Sequence record: MZ234015.1
DNA from: Escherichia phage vB_EcoP-101114BS3
Length of the DNA stretch: 64,000 nt
Direction: 5' to 3' (one strand)
The notes below the pieces were generated by a model. That model ran no database searches. It was not told the DNA's origin and saw nothing but the letters and a program-made list of their open reading frames with translations. The translations under genes and the position numbers were made by a program. Shown in pieces: positions 40,444-55,664 of this stretch; the first letter of the stretch is position 1, and every line of letters begins with the position of its first letter.

Positions 40444-40560
40444 ACAACCTCTTCTTTGAGCTTAAAAAAGGACTCTCCTAAGAGAGCCAAGCTTTAAGGC
40501 CAATTAAATAGATATCACCCAATATCTGTGGATAACCTGCTCTTAAAATATTCTATCCGA

Positions 40561-49093: not shown

Positions 49094-49201
49094 GGTGTTT
49101 ATCTCTTTTTAGTTTCTTTGATTAGTACACTGAATCAATGCACTAGTAAAAGAAAAGGCGCTACCCTTTCGAATAGCGCCTTATGTGTTCTTTATTGTTG
49201 G

Positions 49202-50113
49202 TTATGCTGCCTGTTGGCGTGCTGCCATGATTTCGGCAGCTTTGCGCAACACTTCTTCTTCTTCCTGCGCAGCTTTCTCGTTCGCTTTGATAGTTGAAGC
49301 ATTTGAGATGCGACCACGAAGGTTAGACAATTTTTCAGTCATTTCGTTGATCGCTTTTTCCATTTCATCAGCGTATGAGTCCAGAGATTCAAGCTCTTTA
49401 GTCGAGGCATTAATCAGGTAGTCGTCGCTGATAGATACAGTTGATGCGGTCACTTTCTTAAGGAGTGAATCGAAAGTTTTCTTAACTTTGCCTACTTCTT
49501 CACTCAATGCGATAGTATTGTCAGAAGATGCGCCGTTGCGTTCATCTGCCAGTAGTGCCGCTTCAATACGGATTGCAGCCAGACGGTCAACCAGTGCATA
49601 AATATCCTGATTAAAGTTTTCGTTAACCTTCTGGTTGATTTGATTTGCTACCGGAACATTGTCGTTGCAACCTTTGTAGAATGCTGGGTTATCAACCTGC
49701 ACGTCTTCACCTTTAGCAAAGCGTTCAAAGGAATTAGACCAGCGGGCGCGGTTTTGTTCCATTTTGGCCTTAACTTGTTCCGGTTTAGCATCCTCTTTCG
49801 CTTTCGCTTCACCTTCCAGATTAATCCATTTCTTTTTACCGTTCGCCCCGTCAGTGTTATATTTGATAGGAGTAAGGAAAGAGATTGCAACCGAAATTAC
49901 ATCTAAATCACGATAACGCTCAGTTAACAAGAAATCAACCGCCGCCTGCAATACATCCAGTTTCTTACCGTTGGTGCGGAAGTGCTGCAAATGGCCTAAC
50001 AGGAAGTTAGAAACATCTTGTTTGATTGCCGCGTTGTTGCTACGAATGTTGTTAGCCAGTGCATTAAAGCCGGATTCGTTAACCAGATTAAAAACTTTAG
50101 CCATGATATTCAC
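49202..50113 (-). CDS. Hypothetical protein (303 aa), first gene of the minus-strand block
   Basis: Long ORF with helical charged C-terminus; upstream region has a perfect 12-bp inverted repeat and a GAGCGGGGCA hairpin motif. Confidence 0.65.
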   Translation of the reverse strand: MNIMAKVFNLVNESGFNALANNIRSNNAAIKQDVSNFLLGHLQHFRTNGKKLDVLQAAVDFLLTERYRDLDVISVAISFLTPIKYNTDGANGKKKWINLEGEAKAKEDAKPEQVKAKMEQNRARWSNSFERFAKGEDVQVDNPAFYKGCNDNVPVANQINQKVNENFNQDIYALVDRLAAIRIEAALLADERNGASSDNTIALSEEVGKVKKTFDSLLKKVTASTVSISDDYLINASTKELESLDSYADEMEKAINEMTEKLSNLRGRISNASTIKANEKAAQEEEEVLRKAAEIMAARQQAA

Positions 50114-50171
50114 CTTTCAATTGTAAGGGCACTATGCCCCGCTCTCTATGAGCTTTTTAAGTCACTATTGA

Positions 50172-50211
50172 CTTATCAATAATCACTCAATATCAAGTAA
50201 TTATTGATAAG
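50172..50211. repeat. Perfect 12-bp inverted repeat (CTTATCAATAAT ... ATTATTGATAAG) with 16-bp spacer; operator-like
   Basis: Read directly from sequence; lies 60-100 bp upstream of the start of 49202-50113. Confidence 0.6.
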
Positions 50212-50920
50212 CGAGGCGGTCTTATCAGGAGTTAACCTTGCCGCCTCCTTATCCGTGATGTTTCATCTGGTATCTTTAATTAGTCGCTATAAATAAAGCC
50301 GACCTGATAGCGATGATCAATCATCACAATAAGGCAGTGCGTCCGACTCTATTTAATTACTTTATCGTAACCGTCGGCAATATCGTCTACTTTGCTTTCG
50401 CTCCCGCCTATCCTTTTGTACTAACTCTCAATCGCTAACCATCGCCCACTACGGGAGGTTATTGCGAAAGAGTCATTAGCCGTCTAATACATTGACGTTT
50501 TATATCTTTCAGCAGGTTTACTACATAAACTGATTATGTACGCCATCAATAGTGGCCTCAAATCATTCACATCGTAAACGTTCACACTAAACCTTATTGT
50601 TAAATAGCAATTTGCCACTTTTTAACCATTCACCGCCGCCCCCAATTGGGCGTTAATTCGTCGGATTTGCCTACCCTGATAAACTTCTTTCACTGTAGCA
50701 CCTTGTTAGCGATGGCCGCCGCTACCCTTTAACCGTGGGCGATTAGTTTAGGCCGTTGCGTGTACTCAATGAATCCGTTTTATCAGTGGTGACGTTTCCA
50801 GTTAAGGGATTGTAAAAACTGTTTACCCTGATAATTTAGGGAGTCTTACGCCGTTTTATCTGGTATGTTTTCCGATGGTTATTATCATCCAACATATTCA
50901 ACCGATATAGGAGAATGTTT

Positions 50921-50937
50921 AAATTGTTAAAGAGCGG
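50921..50937 (+). repeat. AAATTGTTAAAGAGCGG exact 17-mer (copy 1)
   Basis: Identical 17-mer at 51288-51304; related TTAAAGAGCGGTG at ~51158 and TTAAGCGGT at ~50997 and ~51124; inverted GAGCGGGGCA variant at 50127-50150. Confidence 0.55.
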
Positions 50938-51287
50938 TAAATCTATCAGTGTGCTTTCTCACACTATGCAACTGTTAGCCGTTGTTACGCTTTTCTTAAG
51001 CGGTGAATTGCTTAAGTGTGCTCATTATGAATCATGCTGTTTTAGCTGTCAACCGCTTTTTTAATCTTTTTCGTCGTTCCCTTTATTGGGAGGATATATC
51101 AATCAGCTATATTTGATTGAAGATTAAGCGGTAAGGCTTAACTCACGATTCATATTTTTAAAGAGCGGTGTTTCTTACTGCTTGGTGAACATTCTATCAG
51201 AGTATTTCACCTTGTCAACTCTTTTTATCATCTTCTTTTATTCTATTCCCTTATCTCGCTTGAATCTATGCGAAAGGGCAAGATGAT

Positions 51288-51304
51288 AAATTGTTAAAGA
51301 GCGG
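51288..51304 (+). repeat. AAATTGTTAAAGAGCGG exact 17-mer (copy 2), followed by GGCAC-TAA-GTGCC hairpin
   Basis: See 50921-50937. Confidence 0.55.
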
Positions 51305-51439
51305 GGCACTAAGTGCCGGATGTTTCAAGTCATCGCTGACCGTGTGAACATCTTATCATAATGATTCGATGTGTCAACAACTATTTTTCGATTAATGCAT
51401 CTTGATAAACTAGCGACCGTTAAGGCCGCTAACCTTACC

Positions 51440-51679
51440 TTAGTTCATACGTTTAAAGGTTAAATCTTTATCTGTACTTACCAGCGATAACACCGCAATA
51501 GCTTTGCCTTTATCGGCATCGGCTACCATCTCTTTTGCCTGCTGTAATGTACTACCGACTATTCTCATAATCATGTTAGTAACGTTAATGCTAGTGCAAG
51601 TGATTTGCGTGTCTTTGCTTGAGAAGGTGTAGATGTTCATTGATAAATCCTCGTTATGGCATGGTTGAGAGTTTATCAA
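51440..51679 (-). CDS. Hypothetical protein
   Basis: 79-aa ORF; start uncertain. Confidence 0.4.
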   Translation of the reverse strand: MINSQPCHNEDLSMNIYTFSSKDTQITCTSINVTNMIMRIVGSTLQQAKEMVADADKGKAIAVLSLVSTDKDLTFKRMN

Positions 51680-51952
51680 GATACACTAATCGAATTATTA
51701 AAGAGCAAGGCTAAACATCTAGCCTATCAGGAGGTAACTTACTGCATCACGTCCTGATAAGATTCAATATACACTATCCTAAAACCGTTGCAAGTCTTTT
51801 TCTAAAATAATTTCACTTTCTTTTAGGCATAAAGGAACGAACACACGAATAACATCAAGGGAGGAAGAAAACAAGCTCTATAATCGAAATCTAGGCACAT
51901 AGGAAGCATCCTAGCGAGCTAAACAGGGGCAAGATGTGCAATCACCTTAGAA

Positions 51953-51980
51953 ATGAAAAAAGCGCCTCAAAAGGGCGCTT
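51953..51980 (-). terminator. Rho-independent terminator
   Basis: Minus-sense AGCGCC...GGCGCU hairpin followed by U5, after the stop of 52000-52371. Confidence 0.55.
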
Positions 51981-51999
51981 AGAGAGTCTTACGGATTGG

Positions 52000-52371
52000 T
52001 TACGGATTGGTGCAAGTGCCGTTACCGGATGATATTTCGTTCATCGACTCATCGAACAACGTCATGCTAGACCGCATCATGTGATCTATAGTGATTTGCT
52101 TTCCGGTAATTTCGTTAACAAGCATTGCAGACTTACTATCAACTATCTTGCTGTCGTAGTCGTTCAGGTCAATCAATACTACCTTGCTGGACTTCTTGCC
52201 AGTGTCGTAGTTTTCCATAAGATAGGTGCATTGCAGACCATCTAAACTAGCCTCGTTGAATACGGCAGCATAGGACACGGAAGAAATAGCGAACAAAGCA
52301 GAACATACAGCTAATTTAATTTTCATGATCCAACCCTTAAGCGGAACGTGCAACAAAGAAAAACAAGTCAT
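52000..52371 (-). CDS. Secreted protein (signal peptide)
   Basis: MKIKLAVCSALFAISSVSYAAVF signal-peptide-like N-terminus. Confidence 0.5.
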   Translation of the reverse strand: MTCFSLLHVPLKGWIMKIKLAVCSALFAISSVSYAAVFNEASLDGLQCTYLMENYDTGKKSSKVVLIDLNDYDSKIVDSKSAMLVNEITGKQITIDHMMRSSMTLFDESMNEISSGNGTCTNP

Positions 52372-53884: not shown

Positions 53885-53960
53885 TCATCAAAAGAAAAAA
53901 GAAACGCTGAAAAAAGAAAAGAATAAAAGAAAGAATAAAAATAATAACTAAAGTAAACAA
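53885..53960 (+). other. A-rich polypurine tract (AAAAGA-type reiterations)
   Basis: ~70 bp almost purely A/G on the plus strand between repeat clusters I and II. Confidence 0.5.
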
Positions 53961-54180
53961 CTACCAGTCTAATGATACATACATCAATAATCCACTCATG
54001 AAACATTAACATAGGTTATTACTATTAAACTTGGGGTAGTGTGAGGATTGTTATAATTGCATGGTGTTACCATTACTAACCTCACTATGATAGCCCTTAC
54101 TATTAGCCCTCTTATTATCACCCCTTAACAGTACATCAGAGTCTAGCCTTTCATCCTTCCTTAACATGAGTAGAAGAAAT

Positions 54181-54265
54181 ACGGGTGGGATATTACTGGT
54201 TAGATATACATGGGTAAATAATGCATGTGTAATATCAATGGGTAGGGTATTTATGGGTAGGGATA
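54181..54265 (+). repeat. ATGGGT(A/G)-type direct-repeat cluster II
   Basis: ACGGGTGGGATA, CATGGGTAAATA, AATGGGTAGGGTAT, TATGGGTAGGGATA in 85 bp. Confidence 0.55.
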
Positions 54266-54453
54266 CCACTGGTAGCAGGTAGGGCAAGGCTTAGAGCTTA
54301 AAGGCTGATTGATTTCCTAAAGGCAATTGCATTGGTAATAACCCTTTTTTAAATGAGGACTCCCCCTTTTTAGGAAACGCGCTCGGAGAGGCTAGGTCCA
54401 TCCGGTCAAATTGAAATTTTAAACTGTTATATATAAGCATAAGGAATAACTTA

Positions 54454-54618
54454 ATGTGGAAATTGAAGATGATTATTCGTCAGATCAAATGTCAACATGA
54501 ATACTACCCGATACGAATATCAAGAGGTGATGAACGATTACACGCTTATTACAAGAGTACATGGAGATGTGCAGACTGTGGTAAGGTGAGGAATAGTAAA
54601 TGGGTGGATAGGCCTTAA
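54454..54618 (+). CDS. Unlisted small zinc-ribbon protein (54 aa)
   Basis: ATG at 54454 preceded by AAGGAA; translation MWKLKMIIRQIKCQHEYYPIRISRGDERLHAYYKSTWRCADCGKVRNSKWVDRP with C..H ... C..C pairs. Confidence 0.4.
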   Translation: MWKLKMIIRQIKCQHEYYPIRISRGDERLHAYYKSTWRCADCGKVRNSKWVDRP

Positions 54619-54740
54619 CATGACATGGCCTTTATGGGTATGCCTTAATGTGGGGTAGCCTTTATGAAGTCCCCTTTACTTCAGCGTACATGGGTTTATA
54701 CATGGGTGGGCCTTTAGATGAGTACGCCTTTATGGGTTGA
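54598..54740 (+). repeat. ATGGGT(A/G/T)-type direct-repeat cluster III with GCCTTTA/GCCTTAA words
   Basis: AAATGGGTGGATAGGCC, TATGGGTATGCC, AATGTGGGGTAGCC, CATGGGTTTATA, CATGGGTGGGCC, TATGGGTTGA in ~140 bp directly upstream of the first gene of the head module. Confidence 0.55.
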
Positions 54741-54769
54741 TCACTCTCGTTTATCAGAGGAGAACAAAT

Positions 54770-55018
54770 ATGTTTCTAGACTTTTTATCAGAGGTACTTC
54801 CCTACTTCCGCACTGAGAAATGTGCATTTGTATTTGATGAAGGGGAGGAGTCAATGACTTGTTTGGGTAGATTAGTAGACCTAGACGATGATGAAGATTT
54901 TGATGCTACGATGGACATTAGTTCATTGGGCTGGTTGTACATGAGATGCTTTGTAAGTTACAAGGCTGAAACGTTTAAAGATTATCGCTATAGCGCTGAA
55001 GGAGAGAATGATGAATAA
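54770..55018 (+). CDS. Hypothetical protein (first gene of head-module operon)
   Basis: ATG at 54770 preceded by GAGGAG; the ORF track extends to a TTG at 54737. Confidence 0.5.
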   Translation: MFLDFLSEVLPYFRTEKCAFVFDEGEESMTCLGRLVDLDDDEDFDATMDISSLGWLYMRCFVSYKAETFKDYRYSAEGENDE

Positions 55019-55664
55019 TATGACAGGAACTAATACACTGAATGCAATCTATGAGAACATGGGATGTAAAGGCGAGGTTGCTTACAATGGCTCACTCCGT
55101 CCTTTATCAGAGGACACTTTCTATCTGAATCGTGTTCATGAAACTACTGGAGGTAAATCCCGAGTTGAGATGGTAAAACAACTGGCTCATGGTTCTGTGT
55201 ACGGTTATGCTCCTTCAACCCGTGAAATATGGGAAGGTTTGATTCCTCGTACAGAAGCTAAAGATGTGAAAGACTATTTCACTGTAGCAAAAGAAGTTAA
55301 ACGTAAGTGTCCATCCAATTTAGAAGTTGTTCCGTATGTAGCTGACAAACATGCACACCTACCGGACTATGCCCGTGAGATGATTGAGATGATTGAAGAA
55401 GCCGAGTATGAAGCTCTGAATAATTATTTAAATTCAAAAGATCAATGGTCACGTAATGTAGTAATTGATGAAGAAGGTAATGAAGTTGTAACGTGGGTGC
55501 ATGTTAGTGAACAAGCTCTGGACCCCGAGCTTGAAGAATACAAAAAATTTTTGGCGTCCTCTTCTTTTGAGGTAGAGAATGACAAATCTATTCCAGTTGG
55601 CTGGGAAGGTGAAACTGTAGCTCTCCAGACTTTGTTCAACCTACACGTAGGTGATGTAGATTAA
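55008..55664 (+). CDS. Hypothetical protein
   Basis: 218-aa ORF overlapping the previous stop (ATGA-type coupling). Confidence 0.6.
   Translation: MMNNMTGTNTLNAIYENMGCKGEVAYNGSLRPLSEDTFYLNRVHETTGGKSRVEMVKQLAHGSVYGYAPSTREIWEGLIPRTEAKDVKDYFTVAKEVKRKCPSNLEVVPYVADKHAHLPDYAREMIEMIEEAEYEALNNYLNSKDQWSRNVVIDEEGNEVVTWVHVSEQALDPELEEYKKFLASSSFEVENDKSIPVGWEGETVALQTLFNLHVGDVD

Follow-up and report, generated by a model that had tools for sequence, protein, structure and literature searches.

What does a compact phage genome keep in 1,327 bases that hold no gene of appreciable length? We asked this of positions 50114-51440 of Escherichia phage vB_EcoP-101114BS3 (sequence record MZ234015.1), within a stretch of 64,000 nucleotides (nt) that we call the window. 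A first-pass annotation, made from the letters alone, had found no open reading frame (ORF) of at least 60 amino acids (aa) in this region, and our scan agreed: none exceeds 54 aa, and the one of that length overlaps the left boundary. The region, a spacer, separates a homologue of phi32_124 (hereafter gene 124; 49202-50104) from a 66-aa gene (51440-51640), and its neighbouring genes are all on the minus strand. It is 100% identical to positions 71661-72987 of Escherichia phage vB_EcoP-101114UKE3 (MZ234017.1; Gordonclarkvirinae, Suseptimavirus), and 97 phiEco32-like phage records match it at 81-99.6% identity. The equivalent spacer of phiEco32 is about 1.9 kb long and unannotated. Our reading, to which we assign a probability of roughly 0.78, is that the locus is a leftward, rRNA-operon-like early unit of a phiEco32-type phage, composed of sigma-70 promoters, boxA signals, a long structured RNA and gene 124.

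The repeats in the spacer are rrn-type boxA elements

The spacer had been noted for an exact direct repeat of 17 bp. The repeat is present and is one base longer (18 nt; TAAATTGTTAAAGAGCGG at 50920-50937 and 51287-51304), and its shorter relatives are found at 51151-51168 (83%), 51694-51706 and 50596-50608. Read on the minus strand, the repeat becomes CCGCTCTTTAACAATTTA, an rrn-type boxA, an identity missed at first pass because the repeats were read on the plus strand. The gamma-proteobacterial boxA consensus is GYTCTTTAANA (Baniulyte et al. 2017, PMC5725501), and the window contains five exact matches to it compared with 0.70 expected on the two strands together. A segment of 782 nt (50925-51706) holds four of these matches, all on the minus strand, which is the sense strand of the locus. 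These copies start at 50925, 51156, 51292 and 51696, with spacings of 231, 136 and 404 nt. Each is located 3' of its own sigma-70 promoter-like site on the same strand, about 19-83 nt past the inferred start. The elements of the array, from upstream to downstream, are:

51766-51793, minus strand: P4, a weaker sigma-70 promoter-like site, TTGCAA-16-TATATT, scoring 9/12; upstream of boxA4 and the small 66-aa gene
51708-51725, minus strand: boxB-like hairpin AGGCUAGAUGUUUAGCCU, directly 5' of boxA4; the loop varies among relatives and the stem is kept
51696-51706, minus strand: boxA4, GCTCTTTAATA, an exact consensus match
51350-51377, minus strand: P3, a sigma-70 promoter-like site, TTGACA-16-TAAGAT with TG extension, scoring 10/12; conserved in SU7, PAS59, TH34 and NC-B
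51304-51316, minus strand: boxB-like hairpin GGCAC-UUA-GUGCC, 2 nt 5' of boxA3
51284-51303, minus strand: boxA3, CGCTCTTTAACAATTTATCA, the second copy of the repeat; 19 of 19 nt identical to the boxA region of the E. coli rrn leader
51191-51218, minus strand: P2, a sigma-70 promoter-like site, TTGACA-16-TAGAAT with TG extension, scoring 11/12
51156-51166, minus strand: boxA2, GCTCTTTAAAA, an exact consensus match
51024-51052, minus strand: P1, a sigma-70 promoter-like site, TTGACA-17-CATAAT, scoring 10-11/12; homologous to the SU10 early promoter at 73511
50995-51016, minus strand: putative 5'-terminal hairpin of the P1 transcript, CUUAAGC-AAUUCACC-GCUUAAG, read from the sequence with the start placed by the position of the -10 hexamer
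50949-50964, minus strand: boxB-like hairpin GUGUG-AGAAAG-CACAC, 13 nt 5' of boxA1; the stem covaries
50925-50935, minus strand: boxA1, GCTCTTTAACA, the first copy of the repeat; invariant in 16 sequences from all clades

The resemblance to the host extends beyond the consensus. A 32-nt query around boxA3 matched 5,426 of 5,426 complete E. coli genomes, at a median of seven places per genome; seven is the number of rrn operons in E. coli. One of these matches precedes a 16S rRNA gene by about 125 nt, within gcgac...gtcgc-aac-TGCTCTTTAACAATTTATCAG.

The array is also retained among relatives. Thirteen phage records (L001-L013, the window's own record included) each carry four or five exact sense-strand boxA copies alternating with promoters, although their flanks and hairpins differ. 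Homologues of the gene-124 product (gp124) with 45-69% identity are found on uncultured-phage contigs. All ten of the distant loci that we fetched have a gene-free gap upstream of the gp124 homologue, and within them two or three exact sense copies of boxA, none antisense, are always upstream of that homologue. The last boxA precedes the gp124 start codon by 870-936 nt in these loci, as compared with 831 nt in the window. Orientation was sense only in 23 of the 23 loci examined, and boxA was the sole invariant block in a 16-sequence cross-clade alignment with a mean column identity of 65%. In Salmonella phage 7-11, which belongs to another family (Grimontviridae), the right-end early region contained no boxA.

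A hairpin stands 1-13 nt 5' of boxA1, boxA3, boxA4 and most of the relatives' copies, with stems that are unrelated and covarying; no obvious hairpin lies ahead of boxA2. At boxA1 (alignment columns 95-112), the stem varies as AU/GC, GC/AU and UA/GC/AU/CG. Across clades, hairpins built on eight or more distinct stems occupy the position just 5' of boxA, in the order known from rrn. The GGCAC-TAA-GTGCC hairpin that had been described beside the repeat is there, followed by (CC)GGATGTTT (51304-51325), and on the minus strand it is a boxB-like stem in rrn order, a role that had gone unseen. The word CCGGATGTTT had been placed in the spacer and in two modules elsewhere in the window; it is exact only at 51316 and 46210, and the claim fails at 40561, where the sequence is CGGATGTTCG. 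The TTAAGCGGT words, at about 50997 and 51125, form the 3' arms of minus-strand hairpins, namely the putative 5'-terminal hairpin listed above and UUAAGC-CUUACC-GCUUAA.

The best-scoring sites of our promoter scan in the region are on the minus strand. Because promoter-like matches are in total as numerous in the scanned stretch as expected from shuffles, the scan by itself proves nothing, and support for the P sites comes instead from recurrence in relatives and from the literature. Twelve other phage records have these sites too. The SU10 paper describes three sigma-70 promoters between SU10 genes 120 and 121, 'like phage phiEco32', and its Table S2 lists them at 73511 (ttgacagcgaaaacaacatgattcataatgagcaca, the P1 homologue), 73668 and 73996. 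Two of these coordinates, 73511 and 73996, coincide with homologous sites that we located. The early promoters of this spacer are already published for SU10 and phiEco32, and with three minus-strand sites scoring 10-11/12 in the window, the suggestion of an early control region holds.

Covariation supports a large structured RNA

Positions 50126-50917 encode a conserved structured RNA that is supported by covariation and lacks conserved coding. The covariation alignment comprised 13 sequences with a mean identity of 85%, on which RNAalifold predicted 255 pairs; compensatory double changes were seen in 76 of these. We avoided circularity by folding the window sequence alone and then scoring this structure on the alignment. 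For comparison, we used slid controls in which the 3' partner was displaced by 1-3 columns. The window-only fold of 50126-50917 had 93.9% of cells paired across the 13 relatives versus 33-44% when slid. Changes on both sides were observed in 66 pairs (200 cells) versus 8-10 pairs (13-17 cells) when slid, and 0 of 500 column shuffles reached the observed values for pairing or double changes. G-U cells outnumbered A-C cells 485 to 91, which fits a minus-sense RNA but is supportive rather than independent, since the minus strand was the one folded. The predicted folding energy of the 860-nt RNA was -255 kcal/mol compared with -208 ± 8 for shuffles (z = -5.9). With compensatory changes among related phages this far above the slid controls, the noncoding RNA locus that the first-pass annotation had entertained is supported by covariation. 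Coding conservation in homologues would have pointed the other way, yet no ORF of at least 20 aa in the stretch was intact in all 13 sequences; each was intact in 1-10 of the 13.

More distant clades showed independent covariation of their own. We analysed them separately because a single MAFFT alignment of all clades was unreliable, having just 48-62% identity to the window. The clade of L026, L032, L033 and L035, about 50% identical to the window when aligned, had 59 double-changed pairs versus 5-8 when slid, and the clade of L028, L030 and L034 had 55 versus 6-18.

Searches of databases placed the RNA outside known families. The sole Rfam 15 match in the whole window was a tRNA, and searching 49900-52000 at E values up to 10 returned noise far below gathering scores. 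The leader had no match in 5,426 E. coli genomes. Its exact conserved words were absent from 185,579 species genomes and were found in phiEco32-like contigs only (three in IMG/VR and six in metagenomes). The leader RNA is so far known solely from phiEco32-like phages and uncultured phages related to them, and it is a new family.

Architecture and variation of the leader RNA

The window's RNA is divided, from 5' to 3', as follows:

50627-50917, minus strand: Domain I, closed by CAUUCUCC/GGUGAAUG, with a conserved AAUUGN hexaloop hairpin (fold and covariation)
50599-50626, minus strand: hairpin holding an invariant degenerate boxA, GCUAUUUAACA, with one consensus mismatch (alignment and fold)
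50328-50598, minus strand: Domain II, closed by AAUAAGGU/GCCUUAUU, with the apical motif UCCC-GUAGUG-GGCGAUG (fold and covariation)
50126-50327, minus strand: 3' hairpin series, GGCGG...CCGCC (loop CAAGGUUAACUCCUGAUAAGA) and three hairpins with AAUAGU/AUAG loops (alignment and covariation)

A common plan is shared by three clades, consisting of a boxB-like hairpin, boxA, two domains and a hairpin series that extends to the ribosome-binding site (RBS). The first domain spans about 290-345 nt, and its closing helix begins about 10 nt after boxA; the second spans about 250-325 nt and is closed by another long-range helix. Two loop motifs recur on different stems across clades: the AAUUGN hexaloop hairpin at leader position 314-382, and the apical motif YCCYRUAGUGGGYGAUG at about 510-533. 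The last 3' hairpin, GGGGC-AUAGU-GCCCU, corresponds to an inverted variant of the repeat motifs recorded at first pass, GAGCGGGGCATAGTGCCC, which is present on the minus strand at 50145-50128, 24-41 nt 5' of the ATG at 50104.

Several local features were observed in this RNA. The 21-nt loop CAAGGUUAACUCCUGAUAAGA (50224-50244, minus strand) is invariant in 16 of 19 close relatives, with the other three differing at one position, and its stem covaries. A GUUAAC palindrome within the loop could permit loop-loop dimerisation. The degenerate element GCUAUUUAACA (50598-50608, minus strand) is boxA with a single C-to-A change. It is invariant in 19 of 19 close relatives and half-buried in the conserved hairpin between the two domains; among the distant loci, it occurs only in L031. 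We also encountered predicted pairings between the boxA1 flank and the gene-124 RBS, and between boxA3 and an 'anti-boxA', AGAGAGCGGGGCA, near 50140. These are not claimed here because they are invariant and without covariation support.

Sequence identities indicate how the RNA evolves relative to its neighbours. Compared with Kuravirus phages, the leader is 88-91% identical and genes 124 and 120 are 74-76% identical. Compared with PAS59 and NC-B, gene 124 is 95-96% identical and the leader 78%. These opposite patterns imply that the RNA is strongly constrained and exchanged as a module. Mosaicism was observed across 49202-50935 relative to L002-L013, where the leader is of Kuravirus type and gene 124 with its downstream genes is of Suseptimavirus type. 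In the metagenomic contigs OEQM257 and OERV30, the type switches inside the RNA, near alignment column 795. Phage LAMP (L012) has insertions of 21 and 11 nt and a rewritten Domain II segment at alignment columns 561-645, with flanking helices kept, which looks like a natural variable region of the RNA.

A candidate early transcription unit and its alternatives

How might these elements work together? Going by the sequence, host sigma-70 RNA polymerase would start at the tandem promoters P3, P2 and P1, with the weaker P4 upstream. Each transcript would soon carry a boxB-like hairpin and then an rrn-type boxA. NusB and NusE bind boxA and, with NusA, NusG and SuhB, block Rho and chaperone RNA folding. 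By analogy with rrn leaders, suhB and the clustered regularly interspaced short palindromic repeat (CRISPR) arrays of Salmonella, NusB/NusE(S10) would bind the phage boxA, and NusA, NusG and SuhB would join to form a Rho-resistant, RNA-chaperoning elongation complex. This complex would cross about 0.83 kb of untranslated RNA (50126-50917) that would otherwise be an ideal Rho substrate. The host Nus system would presumably be used without a phage protein, letting polymerases survive 0.8-1.2 kb of untranslated RNA, and the complex may also aid correct folding of the RNA before polymerase arrives at gene 124. Polymerase would then reach the gene-124 homologue and stop, or be attenuated, at a terminator at 49155-49182. 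There is precedent for boxA countering Rho on long untranslated CRISPR transcripts (Stringer 2020, PMC7665894; also PMC5725501). Given the strong intrinsic terminator after gene 124, the unit probably consists of the promoters, the RNA, gene 124 and this stop. The untranslated stretch is probably a functional RNA because it is conserved and highly structured, having two multi-helix domains and 3' hairpins.

It probably exists as a stand-alone early RNA released by processing, or else it serves the gene-124 mRNA as a cis-acting leader. We consider it possible, at somewhat less than even odds, that the RNA has a function of its own beyond that of a 5' untranslated region, and that it represents a new class of large ornate functional RNA in virulent enterobacterial podophages. 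On this reading, which we hold tentatively, the RNA might be made in bulk in the first minutes of infection by way of host rRNA transcription and folding signals. Its invariant loops (CAAGGUUAACUCCUGAUAAGA and the AAUUGN and AAUAGU hexaloops) might conceivably bind or sequester a host or phage factor, or the RNA might assemble into a higher-order particle, suggestions that are similarly tentative. That the RNA is a cis-acting leader of gene 124 is a possibility to which we give a similar chance, a little under even, and the rest is divided among the alternatives below.

Several points weigh against the rRNA-operon-like unit as we describe it. The structure was predicted by thermodynamic tools on MAFFT alignments, and individual helices, notably invariant long-range ones such as that of the boxA1 flank with the RBS, are without covariation support. 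Homology of the architecture across clades is based on helix order and loop motifs rather than on structural alignment. Furthermore, rRNA has been reported to be intrinsically Rho-resistant, with Nus factors acting chiefly in folding (quoted in PMC5725501), so antitermination may not be the chief benefit of boxA. The strong intrinsic terminator after gene 124 means that processive read-through of the whole early region is not achieved. Finally, the unit does not explain several boxA copies per transcript.

Among the alternatives, the least unlikely is that boxA is a decoy serving host shut-off. Abundant early transcripts would titrate NusB/NusE/SuhB off the seven host rrn operons and harm ribosome synthesis, with protection of the phage's own transcript being secondary. 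The three to five boxA copies per locus exceed the need of one elongation complex, and they follow near-consensus promoters and perfectly match the rrn sequence. Expression of boxA from multicopy plasmids reportedly competes for NusB. However, a separate promoter for each boxA fits one signal per start site rather than the design of a sponge, and a decoy explains neither why the final boxA keeps a constant spacing of about 0.9 kb from gene 124 nor why the structured RNA is conserved. We regard a decoy as unlikely.

A second alternative is a replication origin or primer RNA, acting through transcriptional activation or an R-loop primer as in ColE1 RNA II or the T7 and T4 origins, which would explain the conserved structure. 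The spacer is the longest noncoding stretch near one genome end, with strong promoters, slightly lower G+C (0.395) and a structured transcript, and the literature examined contains no mapped origin for these phages. Yet the spacer contains no iterons, DnaA-box arrays or markedly AT-rich block; its repeat word is a one-strand RNA signal, and GC skew turns at about 54000, where the termini and divergence point lie, rather than here. At about 800 nt with two multi-helix domains, the RNA is far more elaborate than known primer RNAs, and boxA would be left unexplained. An origin is quite improbable on these grounds.

It is very improbable that the repeats are instead double-stranded DNA sites, forming an operator or iteron array for a protein that controls the early promoters. 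Such an array would account for words of 11-18 bp repeated near promoters, but the copies are all in one orientation, downstream of starts at a variable distance of about +19 to +83. They are also identical to a known RNA element, the host rrn boxA, which is not expected of an operator, and boxA is the only invariant block in distant relatives. The notion that conservation reflects several very short, overlooked proteins, for which the depositor's six small coding sequences in MZ234017 could be cited, is hardly credible given that no ORF survives in all 13 relatives, that most records are unannotated there, and that substitutions are compensatory within RNA helices.

Neighbouring genes and other repeats

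Three features flank the promoter array and the RNA:

51440-51640, minus strand: small early gene of 66 aa, SU7_114 homologue, bracketed by a 32-nt inverted repeat
49202-50120, minus strand: RBS AAAGGUGAA and the gene-124 homologue (300 aa, phrog_13018), the first ORF of the unit (ORF list, annotation and family searches)
49155-49182, minus strand: intrinsic terminator-like hairpin with a 12-bp stem followed by a U run, just 3' of the gene-124 homologue; a terminator is annotated at the equivalent position of SU7

For gp124, searches returned no Pfam family, a PHROG with no assigned function, and only weak coiled-coil-type matches among PADLOC and PDB sequences. Its AlphaFold model (predicted local distance difference test score 82; helical with a small sheet) had no Foldseek match in the PDB. 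The 66-aa gene had no protein family match. The inverted repeat on both sides of it (51387-51418 and 51663-51694) is 84% complementary. In a P4 transcript, it would form a long stem around the entire ORF, which may mark a site of RNase III-type processing or be what an inserted module has left behind.

Annotation of the spacer differs among records. In MZ234017.1, six hypothetical proteins of 30-49 aa are annotated at 71751-73010 (window 50204-51463), over the noncoding RNA and promoter array. These are probably spurious because none is conserved as an ORF in relatives. Most other phage records have no coding sequence annotated in the spacer, and several deposited genomes do carry small ones there. 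In the uncultured relatives L027, L028 and L029, a gene-free gap of 2.7-3 kb is followed directly by the gp124 homologue. The genes on the other side of the gap are divergent, and in L027 and L029 they continue to the large terminase gene. This gene order implies that the boxA array and RNA adjoin the head of the structural and packaging gene arm.

Two other readings of the spacer that had been raised at first pass, an iteron set and the junction of genome termini, did not withstand closer inspection. Against an iteron-type origin, the repeats are spaced irregularly (231, 136 and 404 nt), no initiator gene is nearby, and the word they share is boxA, a strand-specific RNA signal, with each copy behind its own promoter. 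The termini are located elsewhere: the record's head and tail map to 54146 and 54200, delimiting a 55-bp terminal repeat, and the repeat region of PAS59 maps to 53938-54205. GC skew changes sign there, its turning point at about 54000 marking both the termini and the divergence point.

Repeated words outside the spacer were also observed. Just inside the left genome end and adjoining the terminal repeat, 54190-54740 is dense in ATGGGT-containing words (GCCTTTATGGGT, ATGGGTAGGG, CATGGGTGGG and others). These may be a packaging or replication repeat set, and perhaps the 'first iteron set' of the first-pass annotation. The TATCAGRGG words at 54752-55105 appear unrelated. Two copies of a module of about 120 nt are found at 46200-46330 and 40555-40680 (minus strand). 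The module starts with the hairpin UAUAGCCCU-UGUG(U/A)(U/G)UAUCAG-AGGGCUAUGUGAG, which resembles CCCU-AAAUUAUC-AGGG within the leader RNA, and ends near (C/G)AACAUCCG. It corresponds to what had been called a 3'-flank module and is probably a small RNA, a processing site or a terminator-like element.

Comparison with known systems

We found no literature linking boxA or structured RNA with phiEco32-like phages in a search that did not extend to the primary phiEco32 papers (Savalia 2008, Pavlova 2012). The BASEL-2, SU7, SU10, 7-11 and svsR papers make no mention of a noncoding RNA or boxA at the locus. If our reading is true, a virulent phage that sets an rrn-identical boxA behind every early promoter would clearly exemplify how a lytic virus can borrow host machinery for rRNA elongation and folding without an N protein. 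This is directly testable in E. coli K-12 because the BASEL phages Bas86-Bas92 carry the element, Bas86 being 99.6% identical here. The RNA is the larger prize, being about 800 nt with dozens of covarying pairs and absent from Rfam. Few structured RNAs are this large, and several of them have turned out to be unusual molecular machines or assemblies. The architecture of this one is kept across clades with an aligned identity of about 50%, and some comparisons show the RNA better conserved than neighbouring genes. A tractable host is available for it, its promoter is defined and the time at which it would be expressed is clear. A practical consequence concerns annotation, as spurious small coding sequences have been placed across the RNA in several deposited genomes.

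Among large RNAs, the leader resembles GOLLD, ROOL, OLE, HEARO and raiA in having several hundred nt, many covarying helices and multiple domains, and it shares with GOLLD and ROOL an association with phages. Unlike these families, it matches none of their covariance models, always precedes one conserved gene, for which it forms the leader, and is linked to boxA.

The promoter arrangement recalls the T7 early region, where A1, A2 and A3, tandem strong host promoters about 125-160 bp apart, lie near the genome end before gene 0.3. Both phages place three tandem strong host-polymerase promoters near a genome end and before the first early gene. The promoters described here are 2.8-3.1 kb from the right genome end, and to our knowledge T7 has neither a 0.8-kb structured leader nor an rrn-type boxA after each promoter.

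Lambda nut sites offer a phage precedent, in that host Nus factors would likewise be used through boxA on early transcripts. A nearby phage hairpin has a purine-rich, GNRA-like loop (AGAAAG), and the core CGCTCTT(T)A is presumably common to the boxA of lambda and that of this phage. Here, however, the order is hairpin then boxA, as in rrn rather than in a lambda-type nut site, and boxA has the full rrn-type tail TTTAACAA. The phage is virulent, its unit ends at an intrinsic terminator, and no N homologue was identified, although no dedicated search was made.

Lambdoid nut sites apart, control by boxA and Nus factors has been described for rRNA, for suhB and for certain CRISPR arrays. The E. 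coli rrn leader is similar in its tandem strong sigma-70 promoters, its hairpin followed by boxA, and the long structured untranslated RNA that comes next, and boxA3 of the phage is identical to the rrn element over 19 nt. It differs in that two promoters share one boxA, whereas the phage has three to five promoter-boxA modules. In the phage, the RNA is followed by a protein gene and the unit belongs to a virulent phage. Nothing like the GUGUGGG-type segment of rrn boxC was recognised 3' of the phage boxA copies, although its consensus is loosely defined and no formal search was made. The phage RNA is also unrelated to rRNA, with no E. coli homologue and no Rfam match. In the boxA elements of Salmonella and Vibrio CRISPR arrays and suhB (PMC7665894, PMC5725501), GYTCTTTAANA is similarly found outside rRNA, ahead of a long Rho-prone untranslated transcript, and no phage N-like protein is needed. 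Those are single chromosomal copies, whereas the sequence here suggests a multi-copy array preceding a structured RNA in a lytic phage. Judged by its sequence, the unit is of the rrn/CRISPR boxA type, here present in multiple copies in a virulent phage.

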